DNA of 19,493 bases from Candidatus Bipolaricaulia bacterium (GCA_046758705.1 JBHIAT010000058.1:1-19493), one strand, 5' to 3'; shown: positions 2,655-10,508, counted from the stretch's first letter. Made by a program: numbers and translations. Notes: generated from the letters alone by a model not told the origin.

Positions 2655-4970
2655 TCAGTCCTGCTCTTCGATCACCTTGAGAAAGACGTCCACGACCTGG
2701 GCATCGAACTGCAACCCGGCGTTCTTCCTCAGATCCTCGATGGCGATCTTGCGCGGCAGGGCCTCCCGGTAGGGCCGGGTGGAGGTCATCGCATCGTAGG
2801 CGTCGACAACGGCGATGATCCGCGCCTCTAAAGAGATCTCCTCCTCGGCCAAGCCCCGAGGGTAGCCGGTGCCGTCCCAGCGCTCCTGATGCTCCTCAAC
2901 GATGCGGGCCACCCGTCTCAACCGGTTGATTCCGCCGATGATCTCCCGACCGGTAGTCGGATGCCGTTTGACCTCCTGCCATTCCTCGTCGGTGAGTTCT
3001 CCTTCCTTACCCAGGATCGTATCAGAGACGCCGATCTTGCCAACGTCGTGGAGCAAGGCGGCATAGCGCAGCTGCTCGAGGCGCCCTTCGGGCAGCTCGA
3101 ACGCCACACCCACCTTGGTAGCCATCTCCGCCAGCCGACGGCAGTGGTCGTCGGTGTACTGATCCTTCTTCTCGATCGTCTTGGCAAGCGTCGTCACCGT
3201 TTGGATGATCAGGTCCTCCAGCTCGAGCCGGCGGCGGATGTTGATGATCGCCACCGCAATCTGGCCTGCGACCGTGGTCATCAGCTCCAGATCCTTCTTG
3301 GTAAACGCGTTCGGTTCCAGGCTCTCCACCTCCAGAACGCCGAGCAGCTCGTCGTTGATCTCAATGGGAACGGTCAGCTCCGAGCGGATCCCGACAAACC
3401 CTTCCACGTAGCGTGGGTCGTTCGTGACGTCGTTGACCAACACCGGCTCCCCGTGCTCAGCCACCCAGCCGGTGATGCCCTCGACCCCGATCTTGATCCG
3501 ATCACCGACCTGATAGCCGGAGATCTGCCCTTTCTCCAGGCCCTCGATGCTCTTGATCGTCAGGTAGTCACCATCCCGGAGCAGGATGGCGCCATAGTCG
3601 TAGACCAGCTCCCCCTTCAATCGCTGTAACACCTGATTGAACAGCGTTTCGGTGTCGCGGATCCGCGACATCTCCTGGCCGATCAGGTACGAGCGACCCA
3701 GTCGCTTCCGCTGTTCGGTCAGCTCCTTGATCTCTTCGAACCGGCTGATGGCTTTGTCCAGGTGAGCAGTCGCCTGTTTGGCGGTCTCCAGGTCGCGCGT
3801 GTCGAACGCACGCTTCCGGGAGCGGTTATCGATGTTCAAGTATCCGATCGTCCGTCCGTTGCTCTTGATAGGAAGGGAGAGGGACGACTTGGGCAACCCC
3901 ACCTGATCGAAGAGTGTAGCCAGCTCTTCCTGTTTGAAGGTTGCCTCAACGTCGTCGATGACCGCCGGCCCCCCCCCAAACTGGATCTCTTGGTAGGCCG
4001 CATCTCGCGGGATGCGGATCCGTTTCAACTGCTGCAAGTTCCAGCCAACCGCCGACTTGAACTCGAAGAACGACCCCTCGGGGCCCAGCATCATGACCGA
4101 TCCAGCCTCGGCATTGCGGATCACGTCGATGGTCTCCCGGAGGATCATGCTCAGGATCTCCTTCAGATCCATATCGCGGGTGATGGCGGTGATAAAGTTG
4201 CGCAGGTATTCGAGCTCCTGTTCCAACCGCTCCAGGTACTCGCGCTCGTCCTCCCCCTTGACGATCTTCTCCCCCACCTGGAGGAGGCGCCGGATCACGA
4301 CTTGCTGGACTTCTGAGACCTTGTCGACCGCCCGGGCGATCCGCACCCGATCCTCGATGGGGAGTTTGAACGTCTCCAACTCCTTGCCCCGGATCCTGCT
4401 GACGTCGATCGATAACTTCGGAACGCCCTCCGCCACCGGGCCTGCGAGCGGCAGGTAACACATCCGTACCTTGAGGATCTCCAGAATGCCGGGCTCCTCG
4501 ATGTTCAGCTCATCGGAGAGCTGCTGGACGGTGGGGAATTCGCCGTGCTCCTGAGACAGTGCCTCGATCGCCGACCTCACCCGCTTGTCCAACCCCTGGA
4601 CCCATCCCGGGAGGCCGACCAAACCTTGGATCGTCTGACTGATGGGTATCTCAAGCAGCCGATCCCGGTTTCGTTCCTCTTGGATTATCTCGCTTTCGAT
4701 CAGTCGAGTGGCATAGCTCCGGAAGTCGGCCTCCCCGGCGGGATCGTAGTGATAGAGAGCGTTCAACAGCCCCACGTAACCGACCTGCATCAGGTTCTCA
4801 AAGGATGTGCCACCATCCTCCGAAAAGCGTCTAACGATCTCCTCGATCAACCCGAGATGCTGGACGATGAGGGCCCTCTCTACTTCGGGGTCAGGGTGTG
4901 GGCTCTCCGCAAGGCGTCGGAGCAGTTGTTGATTGGCGTGTTCCTGGTCCTGGAGTTCAGTTCCCTCCAT
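2655..4970 (-). CDS. Sigma70 (SigB/SigF-like) region 2-3 domain fused to GAF-GAF-HD-GYP phosphodiesterase
   Basis: aa ~34-100 LIVQHLGLIEEIVRRF...ENLMQVGYVGLLNALYHYDP...FRSYATRLIESEI resembles sigma region 2. aa ~145-166 PTVQQLSDELNIEEPGILEIL resembles region 3. Two GAF domains follow (aa ~265-410 SLSLPIKSNGRTIGYLNIDNRSRKRAF; aa ~435-580 GITGWVAEHGEPVLVNDVTNDPRY...SELTVPI). HD-GYP at aa ~590-771 (YTDDHC, ALLHDVGK, HQERWDGTGYPRGL, VVDAYDAMTSTRPYR). Confidence 0.85.
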   Translation of the reverse strand: MEGTELQDQEHANQQLLRRLAESPHPDPEVERALIVQHLGLIEEIVRRFSEDGGTSFENLMQVGYVGLLNALYHYDPAGEADFRSYATRLIESEIIQEERNRDRLLEIPISQTIQGLVGLPGWVQGLDKRVRSAIEALSQEHGEFPTVQQLSDELNIEEPGILEILKVRMCYLPLAGPVAEGVPKLSIDVSRIRGKELETFKLPIEDRVRIARAVDKVSEVQQVVIRRLLQVGEKIVKGEDEREYLERLEQELEYLRNFITAITRDMDLKEILSMILRETIDVIRNAEAGSVMMLGPEGSFFEFKSAVGWNLQQLKRIRIPRDAAYQEIQFGGGPAVIDDVEATFKQEELATLFDQVGLPKSSLSLPIKSNGRTIGYLNIDNRSRKRAFDTRDLETAKQATAHLDKAISRFEEIKELTEQRKRLGRSYLIGQEMSRIRDTETLFNQVLQRLKGELVYDYGAILLRDGDYLTIKSIEGLEKGQISGYQVGDRIKIGVEGITGWVAEHGEPVLVNDVTNDPRYVEGFVGIRSELTVPIEINDELLGVLEVESLEPNAFTKKDLELMTTVAGQIAVAIINIRRRLELEDLIIQTVTTLAKTIEKKDQYTDDHCRRLAEMATKVGVAFELPEGRLEQLRYAALLHDVGKIGVSDTILGKEGELTDEEWQEVKRHPTTGREIIGGINRLRRVARIVEEHQERWDGTGYPRGLAEEEISLEARIIAVVDAYDAMTSTRPYREALPRKIAIEDLRKNAGLQFDAQVVDVFLKVIEEQD

Positions 4971-5018
4971 AAAATTGCCTTCCTATGGATTGAAAACCGA
5001 TGCAGCAGAGCTACCATG

Positions 5019-5047
5019 ATTATACCCAAAGTCGTGGTGCTCCTGAA
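5019..5047 (-). promoter_or_regulatory. Putative promoter for the sigma-GAF-HD-GYP gene
   Basis: Perfect -10 TATAAT on the minus strand (5019-5024). The -35 at 17 nt spacing is weak (TTCAGG, 5042-5047). Confidence 0.4.
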
Positions 5048-5077
5048 CTGAAAACCTGCCCTTGATCGTTCTCAACC

Positions 5078-5106
5078 TTTACAGTCCGTCCCCAAGCAGA
5101 TACAAT
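5078..5106 (+). promoter_or_regulatory. Putative sigma70-type promoter for the YprB-like exonuclease
   Basis: TTTACA (5078-5083), 17 nt spacer, TACAAT (5101-5106), 13 nt before ATG 5120. Confidence 0.6.
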
Positions 5107-5119
5107 TGGGAGAGCTGCC

Positions 5120-6193
5120 ATGGAAGAGCTTGAGGGGAGTTTGAGCCGGATCGCTGAACAGTTGAGAGCACGAACCGAGGCGCGGACACTCCGCGACCTG
5201 GAGACAGATGACGCCCCGAGCCCGTTTGCATTAGGGCGGATCTCCTACAATCAGTTTCGCCAAGCGATGGAGATGAAGCAGTTGCTGATCGAGGAGTTTG
5301 TCGATCGGCCGCTGAATCAGGTGTTTGAAGGGGAGTCGATCACCAACGAATACGGCAGCTGCTTTCATCTGCATGAGTTCAGATCGGGCGGGCTCGCGAT
5401 CAACCGCCGCCAGGACCCCAGAGACGCATTGTTGGCCGAGTTCAAGCTGCTTTACGGCATCGGGCCGGTGGTAGAGCAGTCGCTCAAGACGGAGGGCTAC
5501 CGGACCCTCGAGGATCTGACCGAACATCCGAGGTGGGGGAATGAGGCCCGGGAGCTCCTACACCAGATTCGACGGGGTGACCTGAGATGGCTCCAGCGTC
5601 GCATCGGCCGTTGGCTGTCGCTCTCCCACCCGCTGTCGTTGAAGCTCGCCGAAATGCTCCACTCAGACGATCTGTGCTTCTTCGACCTGGAGAGCATGGG
5701 GTTGTTCCAGCGGCCGATCATTCTGTTAGGGCTCGCCCAACCCCACGAATCGGGGTTCGAGATCCACCAGTATCTGGCCCGGAACATCACCGAGGAGTTG
5801 AGCGCATTGGTCGCGTTGACCGAGCATCTCAACCGGGCAGAGGCGTTGGTGAGTTATAACGGCCGGGCGTTCGACGTCCATTACGTCGAGGAGCGGCTCG
5901 CTTACTACGGGATTTACGACGCTCAGCGGATCTCCCGGCTCCCCCACTTCGACTTGCTCCACCACGCAAGGCGGACGTGGGACAGGCTGCCGAACTTCCG
6001 ATTGGAGACGGTGGAGTCGATCCTGCTCGGCGTGGAACGGACGATCGACCTGCCGAGCGCGCTCATCCCCGACTTTTACAACACCTACCTCGAGGAGCGG
6101 AACATCGGGCCGCTCATCCCGATCATCGAGCACAACCGACACGACCTCATCAGCCTCGCCGCCCTGTTCTCCCGACTCTGTGCTGAGTATTGA
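5120..6193 (+). CDS. YprB/MrfB-like RNase H-fold (DEDD) 3'-5' exonuclease with helix-hairpin-helix motif
   Basis: ExoI FFDLESMGL, ExoII LVSYNGRAFD, HFDLLHHARR, ExoIII IIEHNRHDLISL; HhH-like LLYGIGPVVEQSLKTEGYRTLEDL. Confidence 0.85.
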   Translation: MEELEGSLSRIAEQLRARTEARTLRDLETDDAPSPFALGRISYNQFRQAMEMKQLLIEEFVDRPLNQVFEGESITNEYGSCFHLHEFRSGGLAINRRQDPRDALLAEFKLLYGIGPVVEQSLKTEGYRTLEDLTEHPRWGNEARELLHQIRRGDLRWLQRRIGRWLSLSHPLSLKLAEMLHSDDLCFFDLESMGLFQRPIILLGLAQPHESGFEIHQYLARNITEELSALVALTEHLNRAEALVSYNGRAFDVHYVEERLAYYGIYDAQRISRLPHFDLLHHARRTWDRLPNFRLETVESILLGVERTIDLPSALIPDFYNTYLEERNIGPLIPIIEHNRHDLISLAALFSRLCAEY

Positions 6194-6640
6194 TCATGCT
6201 TCTTCTGCTTCTTCAAGTTGCTCCAGGATCTCTTTTGTTCGTTTTACCCGAATTTTCTCAGATAACTTGATCTGGTGATTCTCTAAGAAATCCTTATCTC
6301 CTGTCACCAGGATATCGATATCTCCCAGCATGGCCGCCGCCAAAATCGGGGTATCCTCCTCGTTGATCATCTCTTTCGCTTCGTCGAGATGTTTTTGATA
6401 CGCATCTTTTCCTTTGATCTCGATGCGGCCGGTGCTTAAGATCGTTAACAGCAGATCGAGTGCTTCTTCTCTCTGTCTCTCACTATATTTCTCCGAGATA
6501 TTCCGTTTCAGTTCCTCAAAGCTCATATCGGTGACCGCAAAATCCACCTCACCTGTCCCTGCCTTCTTCAGCAGATTCCGCTCGTTCCCCTCAAAGCCAA
6601 GCCCTGAGAAGAGCGTGTTAGTATCGAGCAGGATCTTCAT
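6194..6640 (-). CDS. PIN-domain (VapC-like) toxin, putative RNase
   Basis: N-terminal KILLDTNTLFSG, internal acidic residues (SFEELKRNI, EEDTPILAAA) and LVTGDKDFL. ATGA overlap with the upstream antitoxin gene. Confidence 0.9.
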   Translation of the reverse strand: MKILLDTNTLFSGLGFEGNERNLLKKAGTGEVDFAVTDMSFEELKRNISEKYSERQREEALDLLLTILSTGRIEIKGKDAYQKHLDEAKEMINEEDTPILAAAMLGDIDILVTGDKDFLENHQIKLSEKIRVKRTKEILEQLEEAEEA

Positions 6641-6894
6641 CGTTCTTGACCGAACATCTCCTGGTAAACTGTCTTCTTGCGGATTCGTTTCAACGCTTTA
6701 AAGGCTTCCTCTTTGTCGATACCCTCCTGTTCGGTGATCTCAGCGAACCGTTCCAGGGCCTCGAAGAACTCGGCTTTGCGAACGTAATCCCGAATTGCCT
6801 CCGAGCGGCTGGGATATTTACCCGCCTTCACCTGGGCATCGATCTTCTTTAATTGTTCCTGGGTGAGCCTGATCTGCACCGTCTCCATCGCCAT
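6637..6894 (-). CDS. Ribbon-helix-helix (CopG/Arc/MetJ-type) antitoxin
   Basis: METVQIRLTQEQLKKIDAQVKAGKYPSRSEAIRDYVR is an RHH signature. Start re-called at ATG 6894 with SD GGAGGG at 6901-6906; lies directly upstream of the PIN gene. Confidence 0.85.
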   Translation of the reverse strand: MAMETVQIRLTQEQLKKIDAQVKAGKYPSRSEAIRDYVRKAEFFEALERFAEITEQEGIDKEEAFKALKRIRKKTVYQEMFGQER

Positions 6895-6906
6895 AGAGAT
6901 CCCTCC

Positions 6907-6932
6907 GATTGTAATTCTATCCAATTACAATC
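6907..6932. promoter_or_regulatory. Perfect inverted repeat, likely antitoxin operator
   Basis: GATTGTAATT-ctatcc-AATTACAATC (10-bp arms) between the -10 element and the SD of the TA operon, covering the predicted transcription start. Confidence 0.75.
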
Positions 6933-6934
6933 TC

Positions 6935-6963
6935 AGTATACCTGGAAGAGGGAAACGAGTCAA
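6935..6963 (-). promoter_or_regulatory. Sigma70-type promoter of the TA operon
   Basis: TTGACT (6958-6963), 17 nt spacer, TATACT (6935-6940) on the minus strand. Confidence 0.8.
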
Positions 6964-7157
6964 GAGTTAGCCATCTCAATTAATCGAGATTATGATCGTT
7001 TATAGAGCATATGAACATTTTTTCGCATTATTTTGCCTTTTATCTCCGTTTAACTGAACTGAATAAGCTTTTAAACGTTTTTCATATCCTAAATCATTAG
7101 GTGGTCTGGATCACCCTTAACTATAAAGATTAGACTTGGGGACTGGGATTGAATGAT

Positions 7158-9416: not shown

Positions 9417-10508
9417 ATGCCGGTGCTCGGGAACGTCCCAGAGGCCGATCTCGACCTCGACCTGCAACGCTTTGTGATAGATTTCCTCAACTGGATCGGT
9501 GCCGAAGTGGAGGTGTCGGAGTACGCGTTGGTCGACGTGTTGATCCCGGAGGCGTATGCCGATCACTTCGACGGCCGGGAGATGTTACGGCTGGCCTTCG
9601 ATTCCGAGGTGGCAAGGGAGCACAAGGAGGCCCAGTTCATCACAGTTGGCAGTCCGCTGTTGGAGCGCATCGCTCGGCTCGCCCTTCGGCACGGACGCCT
9701 GTTGCAACGCTACCTTCTCGTTGACTACTTGGGACGGCCCTCCAACCTGTTGGAACGTGTTCGCGAGGTCTGCTCCTTTTATAAGTGCCGCTATCCGGTG
9801 GTCACGAACCGACAACAGGTTCACGACCATCCCTACCTGCTCTTCGAGTTCCTGGTGACCTTCGAGTCAGATGAGAAGACGGAGTTTGTACAGCCTGTCC
9901 TGGTTGACCTTCACTACGGACGCCTGGAGCAGGAACTCCTCCCGCATCTCGAGCACGCCATGTACGCGCCCAACCGGGAGGATCCCCTCCCGGTCGCAGA
10001 GGCGGTGTCGGCCGAGGAAGGCTACCGGCTGGCCATCGCACACCTGGGGGAGATCCTCAAGCCGAAGTTGTGGGAGTATGAACGGGAGCTGCAAGGCTAT
10101 AAAGCGGGGGAATTGGAGAAGACACACAGCTATTACAACGCCGTGGCTGAGGACCTGCGGGAGCGGATGGAACGTGCCGAGGCCGGGGATGACCCCCGGC
10201 GGAGAAGGCGGCTCGAGGAAAAGCTGGAGGCGAACGAAGCGGAACGGGTCCGCCGCCTCGAAGACATCGAGGCCAAGTTTTCGGTTCACGTCGCCGCCCG
10301 GCTCGATCGGGCGGTCTGTTACTTGATCCCTCGGCTCACCGTGGCACTCTCTGTGCAGCAGCGATCCTCACGGTATCGCGTACCGGTCATCTACAATCCC
10401 CTCTCCCGAGCGATCCTCCCGCCCCGGTGCACCCGGTGTGGGGCACTCCCCTCCTCGATCGATTTCGACGAAGCGAGACGGCCGATCTGCGCCCACCGGC
10501 ACCGCTGA
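9417..10508 (+). CDS. YqhG-like protein with C-terminal coiled coil and CxxC...CxH zinc-finger-like tail
   Basis: LQRFVIDFL, QFITVGSPLLERI and PYLLFEFLVTFESDEKTE resemble YqhG-family blocks. It lies 9 nt after the YqhH-like gene, the same order as B. subtilis yqhH-yqhG. Tail: CTRCG...ICAHRHR. Confidence 0.7.
   Translation: MPVLGNVPEADLDLDLQRFVIDFLNWIGAEVEVSEYALVDVLIPEAYADHFDGREMLRLAFDSEVAREHKEAQFITVGSPLLERIARLALRHGRLLQRYLLVDYLGRPSNLLERVREVCSFYKCRYPVVTNRQQVHDHPYLLFEFLVTFESDEKTEFVQPVLVDLHYGRLEQELLPHLEHAMYAPNREDPLPVAEAVSAEEGYRLAIAHLGEILKPKLWEYERELQGYKAGELEKTHSYYNAVAEDLRERMERAEAGDDPRRRRRLEEKLEANEAERVRRLEDIEAKFSVHVAARLDRAVCYLIPRLTVALSVQQRSSRYRVPVIYNPLSRAILPPRCTRCGALPSSIDFDEARRPICAHRHR

Follow-up and report, generated by a model that had tools for sequence, protein, structure and literature searches.

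A putative sigma-derived docking module in a GAF-HD-GYP protein of a Candidatus Bipolaricaulia bacterium

The 19,493-nt contig JBHIAT010000058.1 of a Candidatus Bipolaricaulia bacterium (GCA_046758705.1) encodes a 771-amino-acid protein, here called P0001, on the minus strand at positions 2655 to 4970. P0001 joins an N-terminal module that derives from a sigma factor to two GAF domains and an HD-GYP domain. The module keeps regions by which sigma factors contact other proteins and has lost regions that read DNA, a pattern suggesting a sigma fold retained for protein contacts and freed from DNA reading (hereafter, pseudo-sigma). We propose, with a probability of about 0.5, that P0001 acts as an HD-GYP phosphodiesterase under GAF control and that its pseudo-sigma docks onto a partner of sigma factors, namely the RNA polymerase (RNAP) core or a sigma regulator. 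The enzyme class is well known; what is new is an input or targeting module of sigma origin, to date observed in a single lineage. We infer the enzymatic activity, substrate, partner binding, and signaling route of P0001, and its function is predicted on the basis of one metagenome-assembled genome. The entire contig (C58) served as the window of analysis; the draft genome (G000) comprises 3.7 Mb in 319 contigs and is 94% complete.

The gene and its domain architecture

An earlier reading made without database searches (the sequence-only reading) had noted an uninterrupted 771-amino-acid open reading frame (ORF) without giving its strand. The frame was borne out on the minus strand, where it runs from an ATG through 771 codons to a stop; the plus-strand frame at 2655 to 4970 contains many stops. 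A Shine-Dalgarno-like AGGAAGG (4978 to 4984, minus strand), read directly from the sequence, lies 7 nt ahead of the ATG. We checked the domain junction in separately built contigs of three sequencing runs (X1, X2, and X3) from one hydrothermal-vent study, which may represent the source samples. These contigs bridged the ORF, covering positions 2874 to 5200 (X1), 2874 to 4811 (X2), and 4034 to 5200 (X3) with 0 differences, no indels, and no joints. The sigma/GAF junction (about 4100 to 4400) was crossed by a single contig in all three runs, and the interval from 4190 to 4380, where the sequence-only reading had asked for read coverage, showed no stop or misassembly. The P0001 gene is real and complete. 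Within the HD-GYP coding part, 44 nt (2860 to 2903) had about double depth, and the X1 and X3 contigs break there; this stretch is probably shared with a paralogous HD-GYP gene.

The layout given by the sequence-only reading (a sigma module at about residues 30 to 230, a helical linker, two GAF domains, and an HD-GYP domain) proved right by both Pfam and AlphaFold2. Sigma70_r2 matched residues 34 to 104 at 38.0 bits (cutoff, 24), in agreement with the region 2 assignment of residues 30 to 100. Sigma70_r3 scored 23.7 bits at residues 130 to 175, just under its cutoff of 25.3, and neither Sigma70_r4 nor r4_2 had a Pfam match in P0001, even at an E value of ≤1. Two stretches matched GAF/GAF_2 (the best at residues 438 to 575), and HD_5 matched residues 595 to 759 at 138.8 bits (cutoff, 27.2). 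The nearest NCBIfam model for the N terminus was the SigB/F/G subfamily, at 68 bits against a cutoff of 234.35 (not reached); the runner-up was a SigF model matching residues 7 to 227.

The AlphaFold2 model of full P0001 (mixed 34-row alignment; predicted local distance difference test score [pLDDT], 87) was confident for sigma domain 2 (residues 1 to 107; pLDDT of about 90) and sigma domain 3 (residues 122 to 167; pLDDT of about 95). Confidence was low in an insertion (residues 110 to 118; pLDDT below 50) and in a loop (residues 170 to 200). Long helices at residues 205 to 236 and 242 to 264 continue into the first GAF domain, and the C-terminal order is GAF (269 to 390), helix, GAF (440 to 557), helix (558 to 602), and HD-GYP (603 to 770). 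A model of the N terminus only (pLDDT, 75) yielded 54 Foldseek matches at an E value of ≤1e-3, of which the listed rows were all sigma chains. The closest solved relative of the module was sigma-F (1L0O_C; E = 2.2e-9), taken from a complex with SpoIIAB.

From the Pfam matches, the model, and an alignment of the sigma modules of P0001 and eight paralogs (A1), we delimited the parts of the protein, all encoded on the minus strand. Sigma domain 2 (regions 2.1 to 2.4) comprises residues 28 to 107 (4650 to 4889), with region 2.2 well kept and the −10-contact stretch degenerate. An insertion of about 13 residues (108 to 121; 4608 to 4649), found in 0/8 of the aligned paralogs, separates region 2.4 from region 3.0. 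Sigma domain 3 (regions 3.0/3.1) follows at residues 122 to 172 (4455 to 4607), and then a region-3.2-like loop (residues 173 to 199; 4374 to 4454) that has the length seen in true paralogs and a different sequence. The region 4.1 remnant (residues 200 to 237; 4260 to 4373), beginning ETFKLPIEDRVRIARAV, is modeled as one long helix, and the region 4.2 helix-turn-helix (HTH) is absent after it. In its place stands a coiled-coil-like linker (residues 238 to 268; 4167 to 4259; DEREYLERLEQELEYLRNFITAI). The remainder consists of GAF domain 1 (residues 269 to 390; 3801 to 4166), a modeled connecting helix (391 to 437; 3660 to 3800), GAF domain 2 (438 to 575; 3246 to 3659), a helix leading to the catalytic domain (576 to 594; 3189 to 3245), and the HD-GYP domain itself (595 to 771; 2658 to 3188).

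The last 280 residues of P0001 align with the GAF-HD-GYP enzymes PmGH of Persephonella marina (4MCW; E = 4.9e-44) and V-cGAP3 (5Z7C; E = 1.1e-40) and also with 4R8Z. Both the HD dyad and the GYP motif of these enzymes are present (HDVGK and EHQERWDGTGYP), and the catalytic half looks competent. P0001 differs from PmGH and V-cGAP3 in its N-terminal pseudo-sigma and in having HQE for HHE, and its substrate is predicted by homology. Cyclic di-GMP (c-di-GMP) is a likelier substrate than cyclic GMP-AMP because the genome encodes GGDEF proteins: Pfam confirmed this domain in a 1,276-residue paralog (P0002, on C46) and in genes on C110, C66, and C6, and tblastn with P0002 gave many matches elsewhere in the genome to its C-terminal part, which bears the GGDEF domain. 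At their N termini, the genome's other HD-GYP paralogs have Cupin, MASE9, GAF, or REC-PAS; the pseudo-sigma therefore sits at the position of an input domain.

Kept and lost parts of the pseudo-sigma

The host genome encodes four complete SigF-like sigma factors of 255 to 286 residues (on C258, C112, C110, and C48), each with matches to region 2 (74 to 82 bits), region 3, and region 4. The P0001 module is about 39 to 41% identical to these four by tblastn, which argues for an origin from a genuine sigma. In A1, the HTH-less proteins track the true sigmas through regions 2, 3, and 4.1 (ETFKLPIEDR..IA...S..Q..VI). At region 4.2, the HTH of the four true paralogs (KTQKEVGDEIGYSQRHVSRLK) is replaced in P0001 by the linker, whose pattern DEREYLE.LE.EL..LRNFITAI is common to P0001, P0002, and a truncated paralog on C85.

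In sigma factors, regions 2.2 and 4.1 make protein contacts, with the beta' clamp helices and with the beta flap or anti-sigmas, and regions 2.4/3.0 and 4.2 read DNA. Identity between pseudo and true paralogs was highest in region 2.2 (65%) and region 4.1 (48%), intermediate in regions 2.3 (42%) and 3.0-3.1 (41%), and lowest in regions 2.4-3.0 (25%) and 3.2 (22%). Over regions 2.3 to 3.0, the net charge was 0, 0, −2, and −1 in the four HTH-less paralogs versus +2, +5, +7, and +6 in the four true ones. The IRIP motif of the true paralogs has become LEIP in P0001 and KFSE in P0002, and F83 and Y86 of the FxxYAT motif are retained in P0001. Such a combination of kept contact regions and lost DNA-reading regions would fit a pseudo-sigma. 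We think that it no longer selects promoters because the 4.2 HTH and the basic −10-contact residues are lost.

The sigma half described by the sequence-only reading thus held up in part: region 2 scores above its cutoff, and the remainder is incomplete, with no Sigma70_r4 match, the 4.2 HTH replaced, and a net charge of 0 against +2 to +7. The N terminus of P0001 derives from a sigma and should not be filed as a sigma factor, because region 4.2 is missing and the NCBIfam score lies below the curated cutoff. We rejected a shortened region 3.2 as a sign of lost function, since a complete sigma in a metagenome locus (L125) has an equally short loop and P0001 itself has the long form, of the same length as in the true paralogs.

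Paralogs, distribution, and gene contexts

Five ORFs of the host genome lack a region 4 match: P0001, P0002, the C85 frame, a 289-residue gene on C48, and a C48 ORF with region 2 only. P0002 has the order sigma-like, GAF, GAF, HD-GYP, GAF, GAF, and GGDEF. It is collinear with P0001 over the length of P0001, at 51% identity by BLASTP (99% of the query), 51.9% by tblastn, and 54% in a further alignment (A2); within the sigma part, identity is about 46%. The C85 frame (L006:2-1162, plus strand) comprises 387 residues cut by the contig edge; its sigma-like part is 73% identical to that of P0002 and is followed by the same linker and about 150 residues with no family match. On C48 (L004:1008-3010, minus strand), three consecutive ORFs encode a region-2-only sigma, a GAF domain only, and the 289-residue HTH-less protein. 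The first two are in the same frame, one stop codon apart, and the 289-residue gene overlaps by 13 nt; the trio may represent a sigma-GAF fusion that has broken apart or one in split form.

We built an IQ-TREE phylogeny of 53 rows chosen from 129, using 180 profile columns limited to regions 2.1 to 4.1. The four HTH-less paralogs fell on one side of a branch (support, 99/95), within a 20-row set (97/90) that also included the genome's four true sigmas together with 12 others from records titled Candidatus Bipolaricaulota or "uncultured Thermotogae." The HTH-less end branches are long (0.56 to 0.96 versus a median of 0.22), and P0001, when placed without the other HTH-less proteins, is nearest to the genome's own true sigmas. 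The robust result is a lineage-specific origin of the module, from the organism's own SigF-like family. The fusion itself is old, predating a long divergence, because it also occurs in P0002, which is only about 52% identical; the one-off deletion product considered by the sequence-only reading does not fit this distribution. Since P0002 keeps the same domain order and the HTH-less paralogs form one clade, the sigma module appears to have been kept under selection.

The sigma-GAF-HD-GYP architecture was found in this one genome only. Word-indexed protein searches returned 28 matches among 7,999 scored candidates with whole P0001 (PF04542 in P0001 and P0002 only), 2 among 7,740 with residues 1 to 265, and 1 among 2,883 with the N terminus alone. 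Because the latter search missed even the 40%-identical paralogs of the same genome, blank results of this kind are weak evidence of absence. In an exhaustive profile search of 1.84 billion representatives, the best 150 of 206,006 matches were P0001, P0002, and 148 multi-GAF/HD-GYP proteins, none of the latter with a sigma module; a fusion whose C-terminal half is only weakly similar would rank lower. A sigma hidden Markov model found the module in 2/176 fetched proteins, and no ESM Atlas cluster among those of at least 50 members joined a sigma with the GAF/HD families. Across 40 relatives and all 183 other genomes of the phylum, sigma matches occurred only in frames of 103 to 548 residues; the seven longest, when fetched, had the module at the C-terminal end with at most 21 residues after it. 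The fusion was likewise present in 0/80 of the best genome loci and 0/30 metagenome loci. The search for further full-length examples that the sequence-only reading had called for therefore yielded the paralog P0002 in the same genome and none in other genomes. In several relatives of family f3 (G022, G120, G136, G139, and G140), the sigma matches contain a single in-frame TAG. Full-text literature searching, outside subscription journals and supplements, found no paper on a sigma/HD-GYP or sigma/GGDEF fusion, in line with the earlier statement that no characterized sigma/HD-GYP fusion was known.

Apart from P0001, other loci also connect the sigma family with HD-GYP enzymes. On C48 (L007:3330-5441, minus strand), three bases, lying between positions 4656 and 4652 of L007, separate a complete SigF-like gene from the REC-PAS-HD-GYP gene that follows it, a pair that corresponds to the fusion in "split" form. 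Near this pair are genes for a KaiB-domain protein and a GGDEF-EAL-REC protein. A GAF-GAF-HD-GYP gene and a sigma gene are divergently oriented on C9. By tblastn, a GAF-HD-GYP gene lies upstream of a tandem pair of SigF-like sigma genes in nine metagenome loci with a GC content of about 0.33 (L104, L108, L113, L114, L119, L120, L121, L122, and L123; e.g., L123:3-6301, plus strand). Among the four loci annotated by Pfam, GAF-HD-GYP (371 residues) was found in both that were scanned for it (L122 and L123), T2SSF in L104, L122, and L123, two or three DUF6982 genes in L104, L114, and L123, and the sigma pair in L123, where a T2SSE ATPase fragment lies upstream of the cluster. The cluster is of the pilus type, with its own phosphodiesterase and sigma pair.

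Type IV pilus genes recur around the sigma family. At a distance of at most 3 kb from the sigma gene, T2SSF occurs in 22/80 genome loci and 20/30 metagenome loci, and T2SSE in 13/80 and 8/30, respectively. In the host genome, the C258 sigma gene is flanked by genes for a PilB-type ATPase and a pilin, and P0002 is encoded near an MshEN-domain ATPase gene. These contexts fit the role of cyanobacterial group 3 SigF, which is reported to read the pilA1 promoter (PMC2532724). Another, independent set of HTH-less sigma-like proteins of 357 to 385 residues was seen in four metagenome loci (L125:1865-2935, L127:2412-3566, L128:1607-2737, and L129:1636-2745, all plus strand). Their C-terminal domain has a weak PilO/T2SS-M likeness (E values of 0.002 to 0.003, below the Pfam cutoffs); a complete sigma gene lies directly downstream in 3/4 and T2SSE nearby in 4/4.

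Among known proteins, group 3 sigmas of the SigB/SigF/SigG type (sigma-F of 1L0O and cyanobacterial SigF), a pilus-linked family, share homologous regions 2 and 4.1 and, by alignment and modeled fold, a probable region 3 with P0001, which differs from them in the absent 4.2 HTH, the degenerate −10 contacts, the NCBIfam score (68 versus 234 bits), and 500 extra sensor and enzyme residues. The closest published concept is RmdB of Streptomyces. This phosphodiesterase is reported to bind sigma-WhiG by means of its GGDEF domain and to displace c-di-GMP-armed RsiG (PMC13232838); in this system, c-di-GMP controls a sigma/anti-sigma pair (PMC7005675). RmdB is a precedent for a c-di-GMP phosphodiesterase acting by contact with a group 3 sigma. 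The two systems differ in that RmdB is a separate EAL enzyme binding a complete sigma, whereas in P0001 a sigma-derived domain lies within an HD-GYP enzyme. A search of all six frames of the genome for the RsiG-type motif E(X)3S(X)2R(X)3Q(X)3D gave three chance-like hits, none of them in a plausible helical protein.

The closest architecture is found in Armatimonadota proteins of about 425 to 463 residues, in which a complete SigF-like sigma is followed at the C terminus by a GGDEF domain, with T2SSF genes adjoining (L056, L060, L061, L062, L066, L072, L073, L082, and L086; e.g., L060:2929-4203, plus strand). Regions 2, 3, and 4 and GGDEF were all present in 5/5 proteins scanned, and 200/301 genomes of that phylum had a near-full-length match at an E value of ≤1e-50. 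The GGDEF signature is degenerate (GKESF, GEHGF, GQTGF, or GNDGF), with RxxD kept five residues upstream. This fusion resembles P0001 in its broad SigF-like family, its C-terminal domain of a c-di-GMP family, and the adjoining type IV pilus genes, and it is a mirror image of P0001: a complete sigma with a dead GGDEF and RxxD versus a crippled sigma with a live-looking enzyme. Neither P0001, which lacks a Sigma70_r4 match and GGDEF, nor P0002, whose RFGGDEF is intact, is of the Armatimonadota type. The two kinds of fusion appear to have arisen independently because they fall into separate clades (100/100 and 99/95). Two further sigmas combine a sigma module and a non-sigma domain in one chain: Mycobacterium tuberculosis sigma-J with its C-terminal SnoaL_2 (PMC5766207), and the MzaA sigma fusion of the MZA system (an NCBIfam name). 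Both keep region 4, act as sigma factors, and carry no cyclic-dinucleotide enzyme, unlike P0001.

On C58 itself, the neighbors of the P0001 gene are secA, an RNase H-like gene, a PIN/ribbon-helix-helix pair, an SNF2 helicase gene, xseA, rbfA, and infB. The secA gene, downstream of P0001, has its own promoter-like site ahead of it. GC content drops to 0.50 at positions 6001 to 7000 versus about 0.60 elsewhere, and this dip covers the PIN/ribbon-helix-helix pair, which is toxin-antitoxin-like (6194 to 6924, minus strand). A 363-residue ORF after the SNF2 helicase gene (9417 to 10508) matches no Pfam family.

Proposed function, alternatives, and significance

We propose that P0001 is a cytoplasmic GAF-regulated HD-GYP phosphodiesterase, most likely acting on c-di-GMP, and that its pseudo-sigma branched off, within this lineage, from the organism's own group 3 sigmas of the SigF/SigB type. 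In the module, helix 4.1 and the folds of sigma domains 2 and 3 are preserved, and the 4.2 HTH and the basic −10-contact residues are gone. We think that its surfaces 2.2, 3.1, and 4.1 dock onto a usual binding partner of sigma factors. Continuous helices (the 4.1 helix, the linker, GAF, helix, GAF, and helix) would pass on the input from docking and GAF ligands and so switch the HD-GYP site; alternatively, docking may place a local c-di-GMP sink next to the partner. Taken singly, each candidate partner is tentative. The RNAP core, bound through the beta' clamp helices, is a possible partner that we would put first; a regulator of the pilus-linked SigF-like paralogs seems a rather doubtful one, and an RsbW-like anti-sigma an improbable one.

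Several observations weigh against the docking proposal. There is no RNA run among the sequencing runs listed as carrying the stretch, and the gene's own neighbors offer no functional hint. The design was found in one genome only. Retention of region 2.2 does not prove core binding, because no part of any sigma is better conserved and this region doubles as the core of the fold, and region 1.2/2.1 is poorly kept (29% identity between pseudo and true paralogs). In the tree, leaving out the longest branch (C48b, the HTH-less paralog on C48) cost the HTH-less clade its starred support and put P0001 in no starred set. In the catalytic half, P0001 has HQE instead of the usual HHE, with one His changed to Gln; this variant accounts for 22/118 motif matches among fetched relatives and 3/7 in this genome. 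Two more points concern anti-sigmas: the partner-switching cluster on C34 contains no sigma gene, and an RsbW-like protein was found in 1/121 genomes of the class (the host genome, with 0/120 others).

The alternative that survives best, although we still consider it unlikely, is that the sigma-like module is a partnerless vestige, serving as a helical N-terminal cap or dimerization element of an ordinary GAF-HD-GYP phosphodiesterase after an old fusion of a sigma gene with a downstream GAF-HD-GYP gene. Possible raw material exists in the same genome, where a sigma gene lies directly upstream of an HD-GYP gene. The fast evolution of the module (the long end branches noted above), a region 2 score of 38 bits versus 74 to 82 in true paralogs, the degenerate sigma-specific DNA-contact features, and the confinement to one genome are all consistent with such decay. 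However, the module is still foldable (pLDDT of about 90 to 95 in sigma domains 2 and 3), still sigma-like after P0001 and P0002 have diverged to about 46%, and kept in four paralogs with four different C termini. The decay is also uneven: regions 2.2, 3.1, and 4.1 are kept and regions 2.4-3.0 and 3.2 lost, a pattern suggestive of selection acting on certain surfaces.

One particular form of the docking proposal, and an improbable one, is that P0001 is a target or decoy of an RsbW-type partner switch, in which binding of the kinase switches the phosphodiesterase or the kinase is titrated away from the true sigmas. A row of genes on C34 (L008:4480-8660, plus strand) encodes STAS, isoamylase, STAS, an RsbW-like kinase, and a SpoIIE/PP2C phosphatase; with no sigma beside it, P0001 would be a candidate output. 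SpoIIAB contacts sigma regions 2.1, 3.1, and 4.1, of which 3.1 and 4.1 are retained in P0001, and the closest solved relative of the module comes from the SpoIIAB complex (1L0O). Against this stand the poorly kept region 2.1, the absence of gene adjacency (C58 has no match to HATPase_c_2 or STAS), and the rarity of RsbW-like proteins in the class compared with the sigma family, which is present in 61/184 genomes of the phylum. The sequence-only reading had named RsbW/SpoIIAB-type proteins as possible binders; one candidate gene was indeed found, on C34, and it adjoins no sigma gene and had no counterpart found in 120 other genomes of the class.

That P0001 works as a sigma from a −10 or extended −10 element alone, with GAF-HD-GYP as an appendage that takes the place of domain 4 and regulates or senses c-di-GMP, we likewise hold to be quite unlikely. 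It is conceivable in that a sigma-70 without its region 4 is able to work from extended −10 promoters, and region 2 scores above its cutoff, F83 and Y86 of FxxYAT are retained, the region 3.2 loop has the length of true paralogs, and complete sigmas are fused to a c-di-GMP domain in Armatimonadota. But region 4.2 is missing, the net charge over regions 2.3 to 3.0 is 0 versus +2 to +7, IRIP has changed to LEIP in P0001 and KFSE in P0002, and the 13-residue insertion interrupts the 2.4/3.0 border. The paralogs have changed these positions differently, as under relaxed constraint. Split sigmas exist (SigO-RsoA and T4 gp55/gp33); of the 27 Sigma70_r4 matches in the genome, 0 lie on C58, C46, or C85, so that no region-4-only gene accompanies P0001, P0002, or the C85 frame. 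Among the three options offered by the sequence-only reading, a sigma gated by GAF ligands is accordingly the least likely, because the sigma half is incomplete, with its 4.2 HTH replaced and its basic charge lost; the other two, a phosphodiesterase that responds to binding by core RNAP or an anti-sigma and an anti-sigma decoy, rank above it. Finally, an assembly chimera or dead gene, which the 319-contig draft and the contig breaks at the doubled 44 nt (2860 to 2903) within the HD-GYP part might suggest, is almost certainly wrong given the unbroken frame with a good ribosome-binding site, the single contigs of three runs that span the sigma/GAF junction with 0 differences, and a diverged paralog (P0002) with the identical junction arrangement and linker.

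Within the docking proposal, a more specific version, which we regard as a doubtful speculation, is that the pseudo-sigma acts as a sigma mimic on the RNAP core through region 2.2 and helix 4.1, so that the enzyme rides on free core or competes for it. If this is true, the turnover of c-di-GMP would reflect where the sigma cycle stands and, conversely, GAF ligands would tune sigma competition, with P0002 bringing a phosphodiesterase plus a cyclase to the core enzyme. Sigma-derived domains would then constitute an unrecognized class of targeting modules for signaling enzymes, and the HTH-less sigma-like proteins with a PilO/GspM-like tail in metagenomes may be related offshoots.

Known routes from c-di-GMP to sigma factors run through separate proteins, namely, RsiG and, in a 2026 report, the phosphodiesterase RmdB (PMC13232838, PMC7005675). 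P0001 would achieve the coupling in one chain and from the opposite side, with the enzyme carrying a sigma-derived handle. If this handle binds the RNAP core or a sigma regulator, second-messenger turnover could be localized at the transcription machinery, and sigma folds could be recycled as protein-docking modules. Together, P0001, the Armatimonadota fusion, and the neighborhoods of sigma, HD-GYP, and type IV pilus genes outline a widespread, unstudied link between group 3 sigmas, pili, and c-di-GMP in poorly known phyla, for which P0001 offers a compact testable construct.

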